Shown in pieces: positions 18,218 to 24,069 of a stretch of DNA of 64,000 bases. Below the pieces are notes generated by a model. The model was not told the DNA's origin. It was given only the letters and a program-made list of their open reading frames with translations, and did not search any database. The translations under genes were made by a program, and so were the position numbers. The DNA lies in NCBI GenBank assembly GCA_001775055.1, contig MFBU01000015.1, forward strand, positions 4,487 through 68,486, written 5' to 3'. Numbering within the stretch: position 1 is the stretch's first letter; the number at the start of each line of letters is the position of its first letter. The DNA comes from Candidatus Curtissbacteria bacterium RIFCSPLOWO2_02_41_11. GTDB lineage: Bacteria; Patescibacteriota; Microgenomatia; Curtissbacterales; GWA2-41-24.

Positions 18218-19312
18218 CTATCTAATTTGCCGCAAGAATGTGGGAATATCGAATTGGTCTTCGTCAATTTGACCGTCTTCACTCGGAGTAACCTCTTCTT
18301 GGGTAAGTGCTTTTTGTTCAGGCTCCTCAATTGTTGTTATTTGGGCAAATCTCCTTCGACTTTCGTCAAAACCGGTAGCAACAACGGTGACTTTAACCTG
18401 ATCAATTAATTTTTCGTCAATGGCCGCTCCAAAAATAATTTGGGCATCCGGGTCGGCTTGAGCAGTAATAACCTTAGCAGCTTCATCAACTTCGTTCATG
18501 GTCATATCCGGACCGCCGGTAATGTTAAAAAGCACACCTCTGGCGCCTTCGATCGAAGCATCCAGAAGCGGCGAGGCAATGGCCGAACGTGCGGCGGTTG
18601 AAGCGCGATTTTCACCGGAGGAAGTACCGACTCCCATCAAAGTGGTTCCGGCATTGGTCATAATCGTTTTGACATCGGCAAAATCAACATTGATTAGACC
18701 CGGCATGACGATAATATCCGAAATTCCCTGAACACCTTGCGAAAGGACAGAATCTGCCAGTTTAAAAGCTTCAAGCAAGGAAACGTTTTTATCGACAACC
18801 TCCAAAAGTTTTTGATTGGGAATAACAATTAGCGTATCAACTTTGTCACGCAGATTCTCAATGCCTTCATCGGCAACAATCATTCTTCTGGTACCTTCAA
18901 AGGCAAACGGTTTGGTAATAACCGCCACCGTCAAAATACCCATTTTGTGCGCCAGATCAGCGATAATCGGACCGCCACCGGTACCGGTTCCGCCGCCTGC
19001 ACCGTAGGTTAAAAAAGCCATGTCGGCACCGGTTATAACCTCTTTGATGCGCTCAAGCGACTCCTCGGCTGCCCTTTTGCCGATTTCCGGATCAGCACCA
19101 GCACCCAGACCTTTGGTGATACCATCTCCAATCTGAACTTTTGTTTGAGCAACTGACGCTAAAAGATGCTGTTGGTCCGTATTAACAGCCACAAAATCGA
19201 CACCCTGAATTTGCGCCTGGGAAATCATTGAATTTAAAGCGTTGGTGCCGCCGCCGCCAAGGCCTAAAACTTTTATTTTGGCAAATTTATTGACATCCGG
19301 TTTTATTAACAT
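18218..19312 (-). CDS. ftsZ: cell division GTPase FtsZ
   Basis: The tubulin signature GGGTGTGG is present with NTDQQ and a C-terminal DIPTFLRQ tail. Confidence 0.95.
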   Translation of the reverse strand: MLIKPDVNKFAKIKVLGLGGGGTNALNSMISQAQIQGVDFVAVNTDQQHLLASVAQTKVQIGDGITKGLGAGADPEIGKRAAEESLERIKEVITGADMAFLTYGAGGGTGTGGGPIIADLAHKMGILTVAVITKPFAFEGTRRMIVADEGIENLRDKVDTLIVIPNQKLLEVVDKNVSLLEAFKLADSVLSQGVQGISDIIVMPGLINVDFADVKTIMTNAGTTLMGVGTSSGENRASTAARSAIASPLLDASIEGARGVLFNITGGPDMTMNEVDEAAKVITAQADPDAQIIFGAAIDEKLIDQVKVTVVATGFDESRRRFAQITTIEEPEQKALTQEEVTPSEDGQIDEDQFDIPTFLRQIR

Positions 19313-19460
19313 TTTTCCCTATCAGTTTAGAGGTGACTTGAAGCTGCGACACAATTTAACACAGGAGAGATCTATTTGCAAGAGCAAAATTTTAGATGGA
19401 GATAATGAGTGTAGTAGAGGCTTTTGTGATTTGGTGCAAAATTCGGGGACGGTTTTCGAA

Positions 19461-19937
19461 CTACATGTATTTTTGTTTAAAAGCTTCCAAGGCCTTTGAT
19501 AAAGGAGGCACGTTATATTTGGCTCTCTCTTCATCAGTAACTGATGCATCTAAAGGTTGGACCACTTCCCATTCACCTTGACTGTTTTGGATAAATTGTG
19601 TCCCAAACTTTTGAGGTTTGCCAACCGACAAAAGCCATCTATCTAGAGATGCTGCAAAAAGCCATTTTGCTCTTTCATCACCCATTTCCATTGCTTTTCT
19701 CGCAAGTTCATTTGCCTTTTGGAAGTCTTTAGAGGCTTCTCCGTGCTGAAAAATTAAGGCTGCATGATAAAAATCTTTGGCGACCTTAAGACCTCCAGAG
19801 TCGATTATTTCCTTAACTCTTTTCCTGCGTTCCTTATCATGTTCCAAAAGCTCTTCATCAGCACCAACTTTGGAAGAACCAAGTTTTTTCCTCTCGTTAA
19901 CGTCAGCTTTATAAAGCGCCTTCAATTCTTCATTCAT
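19461..19937 (-). CDS. hypothetical protein (158 aa)
   Basis: It is an ORF in the accessory block between ftsZ and ftsA. Confidence 0.45.
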   Translation of the reverse strand: MNEELKALYKADVNERKKLGSSKVGADEELLEHDKERRKRVKEIIDSGGLKVAKDFYHAALIFQHGEASKDFQKANELARKAMEMGDERAKWLFAASLDRWLLSVGKPQKFGTQFIQNSQGEWEVVQPLDASVTDEERAKYNVPPLSKALEAFKQKYM

Positions 19938-20146
19938 GATTGTAGAAGTATATCATGAAAAACTTGAGGCTAAAAAGTGGCGCTCGCCATTCTGTAGCTT
20001 TAGCGAAAGATGGCTCCCCAATGTTAGCGCCACTAACCGAGTTTGACTCGACGCACTTAGGAGGTATTTTCTAGAGAGAGAATTTGAGCCGATATTTACT
20101 TAAATTTGGCTCCGCTGGCTAGACGACGTTAGAACCTATTTTATAA

Positions 20147-20479
20147 CTACCAGCTGTGGCCAAGTTCACATAATTTCAACCACACTTTTACGTCTCCTAC
20201 AGAGGGTAAATTTTCTTTAATATAAGCCATTACTTCTCTACAAATTTCGTCTTGCTTCTGAACTCTTTCGGAAAAAGAGTGGGCAGTAATCTCTAGTTCC
20301 ACGCGGCCTATCATTTCTCCGCCACTTACTTGTATGAATCTAACACTTATCTCTTTTGTAGTTAGCTTAACATCTCCGCAGGTAAGCTTTTCTGCAAGGA
20401 ATTCTTTCAGCTTTGGGACAAAGAATTGTAGTTCTTTACTGTTTTTCTGTTGAACAAAATAGAGATTTACAGTAGGCAC
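20147..20479 (-). CDS. hypothetical protein (110 aa), N-terminal Met-Pro (tautomerase-like?)
   Basis: The MPTVNLYF start is reminiscent of Pro1 tautomerase-superfamily/DUF1904-like proteins. This is a weak call. Confidence 0.35.
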   Translation of the reverse strand: MPTVNLYFVQQKNSKELQFFVPKLKEFLAEKLTCGDVKLTTKEISVRFIQVSGGEMIGRVELEITAHSFSERVQKQDEICREVMAYIKENLPSVGDVKVWLKLCELGHSW

Positions 20480-20605
20480 AGATCTATTATATCAAGGAGC
20501 AAGAATGTTGGTGTCCCACTATTTGCGCACTTAGGACGTTTTTTCTAGAGACTGAGGTCGTGTTTGAGCCGAGATTTTTATAATGGGACGATTTCAGAAT
20601 TATAA

Positions 20606-21133
20606 CTAATTGAAATATTCTGAAAGTTTGTTTTGTCCAAGTTCTCCCCAAGGATGGACTTCATATTTTGCACCATTTTCCCTTAAAAGCTCTATATAAG
20701 CTTCAGTACTGATAGTTAACATACCTCTATGTGTAATGAATTCGAGTAACTTTCTTAATTCACCATCAACTGGCCAAAATCTAGTTATTCTAATAGCTGA
20801 TGCTATTAAATTTATAGCCATATCACTAGCATTTAAAAAATCATTGGTACTAGGCAGTGTGTGGTCTCTATGACATCTGCCTTCGGGATGTGTATGCATA
20901 AGTATGTCTGAGTCTCTGGGCATAACATATGCAGGAACTCCAAGTTCACTTGCCTTTATCACAAACCAGTTTGGCTTTTGGTATACAAAACCAGACTCAT
21001 CCTTTAAAGTGGTTGTCCATCTTAATAATTCTGGAGATGGTTCTTCGGCAAGTAAACCCACCTGTATTCTTTCAAAATTTTTTACTAACAATTCCTTCGG
21101 ATCGACTAAAGGCGGTAATTGTCTTTCTACCAT
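20606..21133 (-). CDS. hypothetical protein (175 aa) with H-x-H...S-x-x-D metal-site-like stretch
   Basis: MHTHPEGRCHRDHTLPSTND resembles but does not match the JAMM motif. Confidence 0.4.
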   Translation of the reverse strand: MVERQLPPLVDPKELLVKNFERIQVGLLAEEPSPELLRWTTTLKDESGFVYQKPNWFVIKASELGVPAYVMPRDSDILMHTHPEGRCHRDHTLPSTNDFLNASDMAINLIASAIRITRFWPVDGELRKLLEFITHRGMLTISTEAYIELLRENGAKYEVHPWGELGQNKLSEYFN

Positions 21134-21220
21134 AGAGGGAATTATTATACTATTCCGAAGCTAAATTGGCAAACTATGAGATACTGATGTGATTGTGATG
21201 GAACGATTTTCGGACTGAAT

Positions 21221-21478
21221 TTATGAAGCAAGTGCTTGTTGCTTCACTTCTTTAGGAAAAACCTCAGAAGTTTCTTTTAGAAATTTTGAGGCATTAAGAA
21301 TTTCCAATAACAAGAGCTCGCCTTTGGCCGATAAATGAGAAATAATATTTCCAGACTGTTGAGCATCATCGATCTTCCCTTTTCCAAGGAAAACCATCAA
21401 TACATCATCTTCTTGATCATAACGATATTTAACTCTCGCCATATCTACCCTTTCTGTAAATGTAGAAAGTAATGACAA
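21221..21478 (-). CDS. DUF2283-family protein (putative antitoxin partner)
   Basis: The pattern YDQEDDVLMVFL...GELLLLEILNASKF matches the DUF2283 pattern YD.E.D.L.I...G.L.G.EIL.AS. Confidence 0.5.
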   Translation of the reverse strand: MSLLSTFTERVDMARVKYRYDQEDDVLMVFLGKGKIDDAQQSGNIISHLSAKGELLLLEILNASKFLKETSEVFPKEVKQQALAS

Positions 21479-21483
21479 TTATA

Positions 21484-21684
21484 TCATTTCTTTTGCTTTC
21501 TATACACTACTCGGAGATTATGCCTTTTATCAAAACCAGTAGCAACTATTGAATTGTCGTTGTCCAAAGAGCGATATTTAGGGTTTTTAATTGTGTCAGA
21601 AATTTTCGATTTGGTAATAATAATTCCAAATATCCTAAGATCGGAAAATTTCTTTTCGGCATGTTTTGTATACTTAATCTTCAC
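21484..21684 (-). CDS. DUF4258-family protein (putative toxin partner)
   Basis: It is a ~66-aa basic protein with HAEKKF and RVVYRK motifs. It sits immediately upstream of the DUF2283 gene, only 5 nt apart. Confidence 0.5.
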   Translation of the reverse strand: MKIKYTKHAEKKFSDLRIFGIIITKSKISDTIKNPKYRSLDNDNSIVATGFDKRHNLRVVYRKQKK

Positions 21685-21825
21685 ACAGAAATTGTATCAT
21701 GAAGATAAGAAATCAGATTAAGACTACATTGTGCTCCAACGGGACGGTTTTCGAACTAGATTTGAAGTGACCTTTTAAACTATGTTAATTTTGGAATATC
21801 CTATCAATCAAACCCAGGACCGTCC

Positions 21826-22116
21826 CTAATTCCGATTTCTGTAAATTAAAATCTGTCCGAGTATTATTCCCGTTGTTATCATTCCCGCTCCTTGTCCGAT
21901 GATAAGAACATTATCTTTTTGATAAATTCCGTGTATTGTCCAAAGAAAATAAGAAACAAATGCTAAAAGAAAGAAAATCGTTGAAATTCCTTCAGTGGAT
22001 TTACGCTTATAAATCTTTTTTATCTGGTCAGGAAGACCTATCACTTTTACGAATATTGCAACTGTCGTTGTAAGAAATCCAATTACGCTAGCTATCGTTA
22101 ATCCATCCATACGCAA
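21826..22116 (-). CDS. PQ-loop/SemiSWEET-like 3-TM membrane protein
   Basis: It is 96 aa with three TM helices and a GLPDQIKKIYKRKSTEGIS PQ-loop-like motif. Confidence 0.45.
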   Translation of the reverse strand: MRMDGLTIASVIGFLTTTVAIFVKVIGLPDQIKKIYKRKSTEGISTIFFLLAFVSYFLWTIHGIYQKDNVLIIGQGAGMITTGIILGQILIYRNRN

Positions 22117-22157
22117 AAGTATAGCAGAAAAAACCAGTAAGTATTACAATTTGAGCC

Positions 22158-22691
22158 GTGGAAAATATAAAAGTTATAAAAGGTACACTAAAACAATTCG
22201 AAGTTTTTTACAGATTGTGGAGAAAAACACTTGAGGGCGGTCTTTTTCTTTACTCAAAGAACAGTGTTAGATTCATGATTGAAGAAGAACTCCCAAAAGC
22301 ATTTCTGAAAGCAGAAATCAGAAAGGGCAATAAATATCTTTTCGTCGCCTACCAAGATGATATACCGGTAGGCTATTTATTAACTAACAAAACAAAAGGG
22401 GGCATAGCCTTTGGTCATTGGCTCGGAGTGAATTCCAAATTCCAGAAACAGGGAGCAGCTACAGCACTACTTTCATTTTGGGAAAAAGATGCACTAGAAG
22501 AAGGTGCGCATAAATTACAGCTCTGGACAACTAGAAATAATCTGACTTTTTATAAAAATAGAGGCTTTACAAAAGGTGGCAGCTTTCCAGAGAGCTGGTT
22601 TGGACTAGACCACTTCCTTTTCTATAAAACCTTGAGAAAATCTGATGAAAAACTTTTTCTTAGAGATTTTTTAAAGAAGAAAAGTGGCTAA
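22158..22691 (+). CDS. GNAT-family N-acetyltransferase
   Basis: The acetyl-CoA motif-A-like sequence is FQKQGAATALL. Confidence 0.55.
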   Translation: MENIKVIKGTLKQFEVFYRLWRKTLEGGLFLYSKNSVRFMIEEELPKAFLKAEIRKGNKYLFVAYQDDIPVGYLLTNKTKGGIAFGHWLGVNSKFQKQGAATALLSFWEKDALEEGAHKLQLWTTRNNLTFYKNRGFTKGGSFPESWFGLDHFLFYKTLRKSDEKLFLRDFLKKKSG

Positions 22692-22791
22692 AAATCATTG
22701 TTCCATACGTTGTCAGAGCAACCTGTATATGGAGTCACATGAGAACTTTTAAGAACTATGTGATACCTTTTTGGGCGGATGTGGTGCCGAA

Positions 22792-24069
22792 TCAGGGAAG
22801 AATTGATTTAATTAGATCAAGACCTTTGTTAACCAGACCTTTTATCTCTATCCTGCCAACCAACGGCAACCTGACTTCTTCCTGTTGATAGTCAGCTCCG
22901 TAGATAACAAGACCAAGACTGGCGGCATAAGCCGGTGAAGCAACTTCATCAACAAGACCGGTTGCACCAGAAGGCAAGCCAATTCTAACCGGCATCCCCA
23001 GTTCTTGTTTAGCCAAATCAACCATACCGCAAGTTTCTGCGCCGCCGCCGGTTAAAACGACACCTGAGGGCGTCAGACCAGCAAAGTTCGACTTTTGAAT
23101 TTCCAATTTAACCATATTTAAAATCTCCCTGACTCTTGGCTTCATAATGCCGTCAGTTAAGGTTTTTTTAGAAACATTACGGATATCCTCGTCAATTGAA
23201 AGACTGGCGATATCAAGTACATCCGATTCTTTTTTATCGACAGATTCTCCTTTTTCATCAACTTCGACGGCAATTTTAGGCGGACGAGAAAGGGCAAGCT
23301 TGATTTTTTCTGCCGAATCAAGTGAAATCCTCAGTCCAATTGCCAAGTCATTAGTCACATTTCTGGCACCGATTGGTAAAACCGAACAATAAGCCGGAGC
23401 GCCTTCAACAAAAATGCAGATATCGGTTGTACCTCCGCCGAAATCGACTAAAATTACGCCCAGTTCGCGCTCGGTGTCGGTTAACACCGAATAAGACGAG
23501 GCCAAGCCGGAAAAGACCATTCCTTCAACGTCAATACCGATAGTTGAAATGCATTTGGCGATATTACGAAGAGCAGTCGTTGCTCCGGTTACTATATGGG
23601 TTTCAACCTCCATTCTGACTCCATTCATGCCAATGGGATCCTTAATGCCGCTTTGCGAATCGACAATAAAATATCTTGGAATCACATGCAGAATTTCTCT
23701 TGATGAAGGTAGTGAAATTGCCCGGGCCGCTTCAATTACTCGCATGACATCGTCTTGCGAGATTTCACCATGGGGATCAGATACCGCAACCACGCCTTTG
23801 GAATTTTGCGACTCGATGTGGGTACCGTCAACAGAAACAAAAGCGGTTCCTGCAGAATATCCGGCCATCCGTTCTGCAGCCTCAAGCGAGGCAGTTATCG
23901 AAGCTACCGCCTCATCAATATCGACAACCTGGCCTTTGCGAAGACCGCGTGAAGGTTGGGAAGATACGCCAATTATATTAACGGAAGACGCAGCTTGGAC
24001 TGTAGTGATAATCGTAGTAACTTTGGAGGAACCAACATCAATACCAACCACAACTTTATCTTTAGACAT
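22792..24069 (-). CDS. ftsA: cell division protein FtsA (actin-like ATPase)
   Basis: The signatures VVGIDVGSSKV, DFGGGTTD and VLTGGGA are present. Confidence 0.9.
   Translation of the reverse strand: MSKDKVVVGIDVGSSKVTTIITTVQAASSVNIIGVSSQPSRGLRKGQVVDIDEAVASITASLEAAERMAGYSAGTAFVSVDGTHIESQNSKGVVAVSDPHGEISQDDVMRVIEAARAISLPSSREILHVIPRYFIVDSQSGIKDPIGMNGVRMEVETHIVTGATTALRNIAKCISTIGIDVEGMVFSGLASSYSVLTDTERELGVILVDFGGGTTDICIFVEGAPAYCSVLPIGARNVTNDLAIGLRISLDSAEKIKLALSRPPKIAVEVDEKGESVDKKESDVLDIASLSIDEDIRNVSKKTLTDGIMKPRVREILNMVKLEIQKSNFAGLTPSGVVLTGGGAETCGMVDLAKQELGMPVRIGLPSGATGLVDEVASPAYAASLGLVIYGADYQQEEVRLPLVGRIEIKGLVNKGLDLIKSILP

Follow-up and report, generated by a model that had tools for sequence, protein, structure and literature searches.

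We focus here on the region between the cell-division genes ftsA and ftsZ in a 64,000-nucleotide stretch of contig MFBU01000015.1, from Candidatus Curtissbacteria bacterium RIFCSPLOWO2_02_41_11, which we call the window. The two genes are held apart by an array of small genes, and a short motif that resembles the 3' end of a tRNA stands after the units of this array and at its two ends. We hold with moderate confidence that small mobile cassettes attach or are joined at this motif, and that a recombinase encoded elsewhere inserts them. The array would then be a lineage-specific set of 5 or 6 small gene cassettes, lodged between the ftsA stop codon and an intact ftsZ promoter, each ending in a copy of the motif, which looks like a pseudo tRNA 3' end. 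Site-specific recombination at the motif, by a recombinase acting in trans from another locus, would let single-gene cassettes come in, be swapped and be lost; they would dock primarily at the 3' end of tRNA genes, and secondarily in the ftsA-ftsZ spacer.

The spacer covers exactly positions 19313-22791 (about 3.5 kb), between ftsZ (18218-19312) and ftsA (22792-24069), both on the minus strand, as are all the features of the spacer described below unless stated otherwise. Its G+C content is 31-41%, against 44-48% for ftsA and ftsZ. A first-pass annotation, made from the sequence letters, had delimited an accessory insertion at these very coordinates and proposed that it splits a normally adjacent pair, and the comparison of relatives bears this out. 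Indeed, among 80 genomes with a related FtsZ, 70 carry ftsA just upstream, across a gap of about 15-630 nt, and no ftsA was detected in the other 10; only L002, the closest of the 80 (FtsZ 88% identical), has an insert, which is 1.1 kb long and holds a single EamA gene unrelated to the genes of the window. The site is empty in the Curtissbacteria L209, L210, L211, L001 and L225 (FtsA 77-85% identical) as well as in L223 (FtsA 96% identical). In L208 (FtsA also 96% identical), it is occupied by a different array of 5.5 kb and 8 genes, which has no protein in common with that of the window. The gene content between ftsA and ftsZ is thus the opposite of a conserved core, the relatives being without the window's genes at this site. 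This insertion polymorphism, with empty, filled and differently filled sites in close relatives, supports the cassette reading.

The position of the insertion can be read from the empty sites, in which a block CTTGCAAATA...TGTTAAATTG begins 2-25 nt after the stop codon of ftsA. Every lineage has this block immediately upstream of ftsZ, which places the insertion after the ftsA stop codon and before the promoter of ftsZ. The corresponding promoter-like block of the window (CTTGCAAATAGATCTCTCCTGTGTTAAATTG, 19352-19382), which is conserved in every Curtissbacteria relative, is intact downstream of the array, and ftsZ is presumably expressed from this retained promoter. The ftsA stop codon is TGA in the three occupied lineages (window, L208 and L002) and TAA or TAG in all six empty ones, so the junction may include the stop codon itself. 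A target-site duplication was also considered: the hexamer GCACCA is present on both flanks of the window array, but it does not flank the array of L208 in this way and was hence not credited.

The motif has a family consensus of AAAAGTTCGAAAATCGTCCCAYCYGGGGAGCMA on the coding strand and a length of 20-31 bp, and six copies of it are counted in the window. From the ftsZ side, these are M1, at the right boundary (19437-19466, TAG followed by TTCGAAAACCGTCCCCGAATTTTG); M2b, after the 110-aa gene (20107-20140, TAGGTTCTAACGTCGTCTAGCCAGCGGAGCCA), which is of variant type 2 (profile E 0.08); M2 (20584-20605, TAATTCTGAAATCGTCCCA), directly after a stop codon and 71% identical to the reference copy, which resembles the variant type 2 found in contig L100; M3 (21197-21220, TTCAGTCCGAAAATCGTTCCATC), also directly after a stop codon (profile E 7e-5); M4 (21732-21761, CTAGTTCGAAAACCGTCCCGTTGGAGCA; profile E 8e-6); and, at the left boundary, a degenerate copy (TTCGGCACCACATCCGCCCAAAAAGG, 22766-22794) preceded by the ftsA stop TGA, its likeness to the motif being judged by eye. 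On the coding strand, the copies abut or overlap stop codons, with the exception of one that lies 65 nt past the stop of the PQ-loop gene. The four copies that had been picked out from the sequence are all real, although they start at 19446, 20585, 21200 and 21741, that is, 1-10 nt away from the positions first given; M2b and the copy at the ftsA stop come in addition to them. A pattern of the motif allowing up to 3 mismatches has 3 matches in the 64 kb, against 0.52 expected, and all of them are in the spacer. A profile built from unrelated metagenome copies matched three of the four initial copies in a first search, all on the minus strand (E 8e-6 to 2e-4), and five of the six counted copies overall, M2b being met in the first search and M2 only when regions of the window were searched separately. 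The presence of the motif after each cassette and at both ends of the array, and nowhere else in the 64 kb, is a second support for the cassette reading.

The comparison with L208 gives access to the junctions themselves. The coding content of the two arrays is entirely different, whereas short non-coding modules are 79-89% identical between them; these modules (a repeat termed B, a promoter-like module, a 79-nt 3' module and a hairpin) are found in another order and beside other genes, so that promoter and junction modules appear, from their sequences, to have been shuffled between the two arrays. The 79-nt 3' module (21749-21827), which ends in ...TAGTTCGAAA, is 87% identical to L208 13468-13545, where it occurs without the PQ-loop gene. 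Its homology with L208 stops at this ...TAGTTCGAAA, within the core of M4, and this forms a first breakpoint. The second is at the right boundary, where homology with L208 begins at TTCGAAAA of M1 and continues into ftsZ. Both breakpoints meet at TTCGAAA, at which one block ends and the other begins, and this is the pattern expected from a crossover in a short common core. On the other side of the array, ftsA homology with L208 extends 9 nt past the stop codon and then decays. Recombination at the motif, a crossover within TTCGAAA or close to it, and the existence of a dedicated enzyme are our inferences.

The approximately 50-nt repeat B, which the first-pass annotation had also noted upstream of two genes, is genuine: 20052-20077 and 20526-20551 are 92% identical over 26 nt, and each is then followed by TTTGAGCCGA. 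The full copies are B1 (20525-20572, TCGGCTCAAA...CTCTAGAAAAAACGTCCTAAGTGCGC), which has a motif-like 3' part and is 79-82% identical to L208 11144-11194 and 14203-14264, and B2 (20052-20093), which is 81% identical to L208 14209-14260; the repeat thus has two further occurrences in this relative. The promoter-like module (21144-21172), TTGCCA-17-TATAAT, fits 11 of the 12 consensus positions and stands upstream of the 175-aa gene; it is 89% identical to L208 14281-14317, where it precedes an unrelated gene, and it behaves like a portable promoter. At least one cassette gene has a strong promoter-like site of its own. The G+C-rich hairpin with a T-run (19972-20033), upstream of the 158-aa gene, is terminator-like according to its folding and 79% identical to L208 11288-11378. 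It was rejected as a conserved structured RNA, as L208 does not keep the outer stem.

The motif is not a particularity of this genome. Its family was delimited among the matches listed from a scan of metagenome contigs with the motif core, about half of which are low-G+C contigs that have in common an extended block of about 31 nt, AAAAGTTCGAAAATCGTCCCAYC-N5-AGC, and that are presumably other genomes of the Candidate Phyla Radiation (CPR). These contigs hold arrays. L100 has 12 copies of the motif in 5.8 kb, and the units are of 0.3-1.1 kb with one gene each. If weak profile matches are included, L158, L153 and L183 reach 8, 7 and 4 copies, respectively. All the copies are on one strand in 17 of the 18 multi-copy loci. 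The genes that precede the motif are diverse and accessory (hydrolases, methyltransferases, HIT, DUF1428, VF530, NYN, GNAT), whereas housekeeping genes adjoin the arrays. One cassette (88% identical) is present after a tRNA-Asn gene in L158 and again after a motif copy in L126. L208 and L158 each have a RibD_C homologue; the two are 29% identical and have the same motif variant directly at their stop codon. As for M2b of the window, its first 16 nt are an exact match to the variant copies of L100.

The left half of the motif, including a 5-nt insertion, is near-invariant over unrelated contigs and over sites at tRNA-Asn, at tRNA-Gln and away from tRNA genes. Eight contigs of 55-67% G+C (L093, L101, L102, L106, L114, L120, L154 and L200) also carry a non-coding sequence, ccaAGTTCGAAAATCGTCCCtRAC..CCAGCCAg, near diverse accessory genes; as the A+T-rich left half is unchanged in them, the family seems to reach beyond the CPR. 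Other high-G+C matches, in L084, L089, L098, L108, L139, L148, L163, L166, L168 and L199, were discarded as chance matches, since they fall in coding repeats that read GT(V/I)FEL in large repeat proteins, and six matches in viral contigs, which are without the extended motif, were attributed to chance.

A short, conserved, multi-copy and intergenic sequence could also be the end of a non-autonomous transposon, akin to a miniature inverted-repeat transposable element or a repetitive extragenic palindrome, that has spread into intergenic regions without any relation to the genes between its copies. Copies in tandem without an intervening gene, as seen in L151 and in the combination of motif and repeat B in the window, would fit this. 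We nevertheless regard it as highly improbable, since neither terminal inverted repeats nor inverted pairs of copies are found, all the copies of an array face the same way and abut stop codons, and the remaining 60 kb of the window hold no motif.

The arrays of the family are connected to tRNA genes. Five loci hold a tRNA gene, which is near the array in four of them, and in these four the array begins directly downstream of it, in the same orientation. The anchoring genes are tRNA-Asn(GTT) in L158 and L152, and tRNA-Gln(CTG) in L183 and L086. The orientation of the motif is that of the anchoring tRNA and remains constant along the array, even past inverted genes (the GNAT gene in the window, three genes in L183, YafQ/RelB in L208). 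In L086, the sequence that follows tRNA-Gln recurs after motif copies, and the homology between L086 and L183 extends 3 nt beyond the tRNA gene, after which the two differ completely. The motif itself resembles a tRNA 3' end: it has a T-loop-like core, GTTCGAA, followed by the 5-nt insertion, which real tRNAs lack, and then by a tail that is the counterpart of the 3' strand of the T-stem, the acceptor strand and the CCA end. The tails of the Asn arrays match tRNA-Asn at 9-13/17 against 8-11/17 for tRNA-Gln, which is only slightly better, and those of the Gln arrays show a weaker preference (5-10/17 for tRNA-Gln against 5-8/17 for the other tRNA); the tail of M2b matches tRNA-Asn 3' ends at 12/17. 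In the window, the only tRNA gene is at 323-396, and the array is at ftsA-ftsZ, not at a tRNA 3' end.

Such anchoring, with repeats that look like a tRNA 3' end, is a pattern which has been described for Prochlorococcus islands. It is also what would be left if larger integrase-bearing islands that target tRNA genes, of the additive, tycheposon-like kind, had integrated serially, deposited partial-tRNA attachment repeats, and then lost their integrase and most of their genes. In that case the motif would be without a role today and single genes would not be mobile by themselves; the degenerate state of the window copies and the presence in L208 of an IS30-like remnant and a toxin-antitoxin pair would agree with this. 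We find it unlikely that the motif copies are inert scars of this kind, considering that the units are of 0.3-1.1 kb with one gene each, in rows of up to 12 within 5.8 kb, and that no integrase remnant is found in about 60 loci. The near-invariant left half, with its 5-nt insertion, over unrelated contigs and types of sites also argues for selection on the motif itself rather than for the decay of copies of the host tRNA.

We then have to consider that the motif may act at the level of RNA or transcription, as a 3' untranslated region (3'-UTR) element that mimics a tRNA end and serves in processing, stability or insulation, the variability of the spacer coming from ordinary horizontal transfer. 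The motif begins 4-250 nt past a stop codon and has the same orientation as the upstream gene in 53 of 63 cases. A terminator-like hairpin is found downstream of 12 of 62 family copies (19%, against 9% in controls), and many of the copies in L100, L153 and L158 are located just before a hairpin with a T-run. This explanation is, to our mind, quite improbable. There is no conserved partner with which the motif could pair into an acceptor-like or an attC-like stem: the tail finds a 5' acceptor partner at 8.2/11, against 8.05/11 in controls, and the best upstream complement to the right half scores 8.3/12, against 8.5/12 in controls (59 family copies), only copy M4 of the window forming a long hairpin with upstream sequence. 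Both an attC-like fold and a tRNA or tRNA-like minihelix were thus rejected, ARAGORN and Rfam finding nothing of the latter, and no Rfam family matches the motif in the window, in the spacer at a permissive threshold or in nine array loci. An intrinsic terminator was rejected likewise, as a scan of the motif copies shows no G+C-rich hairpin with a T-run in the motif itself. Moreover, an RNA signal does not account for the constant orientation of the motif along arrays, even where the preceding gene is inverted, and leaves unexplained why arrays start at tRNA genes and why homology breaks at the motif. The anchoring, in particular, points to a DNA junction site rather than to a transcript end.

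Several observations weigh against a mobile cassette system of the kind that we favour. The enzyme is the first of them: no recombinase, integrase or transposase is found in the window, among 20 open reading frames (ORFs) tested and the precomputed annotations, and partial screens found no recombinase among the genes at the tRNA-proximal ends of the arrays, in a crude motif screen of all the loci, or among the most frequent families of 114 neighbour ORFs. No circular or excised form of a cassette was observed either, so the mechanism is one that we infer. The crossover point is based on two breakpoints only, and in L100 the left and right halves of two motif variants remain linked, without hybrids. 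The window copies of the motif are degenerate, with the tRNA-like tail kept in only one of them, and the tails of the copies in L152 would fail to rebuild a working acceptor stem. The motif is absent after the four homologues of the 158-aa gene that were checked elsewhere, and the family has no member in the viral contigs. Furthermore, the array is fixed in the population of its own species, since the 7 sampled places with an identical FtsZ all carry it, which leaves current mobility unsupported. Finally, the window, L208 and L223 have about 85% DNA identity over murD-ftsA, and are thus congeneric species, not strains.

In L153, a diversity-generating retroelement (792-2207), with a reverse transcriptase and an Avd protein above the NCBIfam cutoff, adjoins the motif array. 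Its reverse transcriptase was set aside, as it belongs with Avd to this retroelement and is probably unrelated; its location next to the array is probably coincidental.

If we now compare these arrays to known systems, they most resemble, in terms of function, the clusters of attC sites lacking an integron integrase (CALINs) and the additive islands anchored at tRNA genes. As in integrons and CALINs, diverse small genes (toxin-antitoxin-like, GNAT, ORFans) are in tandem, mostly as single genes and mostly co-oriented; a repeat abuts each stop codon, no integrase is encoded in cis, and the content varies among related genomes. Indeed, the array is made of tandem, mostly co-oriented single-gene cassettes of diverse function, and no IntI is found next to it among the 20 window ORFs and the annotations, a gene that a CALIN would not need in cis. 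It differs from them in that the conservation is that of a linear sequence and not that of an attC structure, without R''/R' or L''/L' pairing and without the integron core GTTRRRY, the motif core being GTTCGAA or GTTCTAA with a C, not a purine, at position 4. The arrays are also anchored at tRNA genes, unlike those that start from attI beside intI, and several cassettes appear to carry their own promoter.

The tycheposons of Prochlorococcus are additive genomic islands next to tRNA genes (bioRxiv 10.1101/2020.12.28.424599). Here too, variable content accrues directionally from the tRNA 3' end, close relatives differ in content, and successive units are separated by direct repeats with some likeness to partial tRNAs. 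The units of the present arrays are, however, single genes of 0.3-1.1 kb, without any integrase or replication module found, and their repeat, rather than copying the tRNA of its host, has the form of a pseudo-tRNA end that is widely shared and includes a 5-nt insertion. The window array also differs by its location between ftsA and ftsZ, although those of L158, L152, L183 and L086 do start at a tRNA 3' end.

Modules that depend on Xer (pdif modules, IMEX elements) are small gene modules with short conserved sites as well, and their recombinase is encoded elsewhere. The motif does not look like an Xer/dif-type site, in which two 11-bp arms in inverted orientation and a 6-8-bp spacer make up about 28 bp: inspection of the consensus reveals no dyad symmetry of the 11-6-11 type, and the copies are direct, not alternating. 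The only dyad is in the repeat of the EamA insert of L002. This insert has direct repeats AACAACGAGGTCSGAYYTCGT at 8925-8945 and 9877-9897, the same being found in L224, and the second copy in L002 forms a perfect palindrome of the 8-7-8 type (ACAACGAG-GTCCGAT-CTCGTTGT). It has the look of a classical core site for a recombinase, and only a loose likeness to the window motif. The t-elements of plant mitochondria are tRNA-like 3' processing signals that need an acceptor/T-arm fold. They have in common with the motif a tRNA-end-like sequence just past coding regions, but no partner exists with which the motif could pair, and it is matched by neither tRNA nor Rfam models.

On these grounds, we tentatively suggest that the motif may belong to an integron-like gene-capture system of the CPR, and possibly of some high-G+C phyla, that would use a linear site of about 31 bp mimicking a tRNA 3' end, a recombinase encoded elsewhere, tRNA-Asn and tRNA-Gln genes as primary docks, and secondary sites located even in the cell-division cluster. 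No integron-like system for the CPR was found in the searchable literature, nor any paper linking the CPR with gene cassettes or site-specific recombination. A search for the motif in searchable papers gave no match to its long form and, for a 12-mer, one irrelevant primer.

The spacer contains seven genes, which are six minus-strand ORFs and a plus-strand GNAT gene; the opposite strand of the latter had been called correctly, while seven had been given as the number of the minus-strand genes, when it is the total. The GNAT acetyltransferase gene (22158-22691, plus strand; Pfam Acetyltransf_1, E 9e-12) is inverted with respect to the array. It is followed, towards ftsZ, by a SemiSWEET-like MtN3/PQ-loop gene of 96 aa (21826-22116; MtN3_slv E 1e-12, PQ-loop E 5e-10), then by a 66-aa ORF (21484-21684), without a Pfam or NCBIfam match, that is paired with a DUF2283 gene (21221-21478; Pfam E 9e-10) across a gap of 5 nt. 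Pfam thus agrees with the initial labels DUF2283, PQ-loop and GNAT, but gives, like NCBIfam, no match at E<=10 for those of a tautomerase-like and of a DUF4258 protein. It is plausible, though unconfirmed, that the 66-aa ORF encodes a DUF4258-like toxin. The 175-aa gene (20606-21133), without a Pfam match, is an ORFan: it has one homologue cluster among 5.8 billion proteins, from the same species. The 110-aa gene (20147-20479), which is the one first labelled tautomerase-like, is not assigned to a family, with no Pfam or NCBIfam match even at E<=10. The 158-aa gene (19461-19937) is DUF6624-like, its Pfam E of 3.5e-4 being weak and under the curated cutoff, and 153 homologues of its protein were found. 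Upstream of the array, the FtsA of the window is identical to that of GW2011_GWC2_38_9.

The array of L208 has features of its own. Its toxin-antitoxin pair is YafQ/RelB, and a 53-aa fragment (13043-13204, minus strand), which by eye looks like the C-terminus of an IS30-family transposase, adjoins a simple repeat (GAAGAAGA)n. Its spacers contain about 8 copies of CCGAATC and 3 copies of CCGAAGTCC (9279-9450, 10405-10480), with no counterpart in the window.

Just downstream of ftsZ, the window holds a HicB/HicA pair and an 885-aa ORF without a Pfam or NCBIfam match (14839-18217), and the relatives L209-L211 have other genes at this position. As the gene content varies there too, ftsZ has variable regions on both flanks; no copy of the motif is found in 14839-18217. 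Near the left end of the window, a ParB-family gene (1018-1848) adjoins the tRNA-Val gene (323-396) and a signal peptidase gene.

The bacteria of the CPR have tiny genomes and are believed to rely on the uptake of DNA and on flexible small accessory genes, and few mobile-element systems have been described in them. A conserved junction motif would offer a sequence handle by which this flexible gene pool can be located in metagenomes. It would help to find the responsible recombinase by co-occurrence and to study how genes can be inserted beside essential ones, such as ftsZ, without disrupting them. Should the motif turn out to act in RNA instead, a widespread and previously undescribed 3'-UTR element would have come to light. 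If the cassette reading is true, the motif would be a searchable marker for an undescribed process of gene capture in the CPR.

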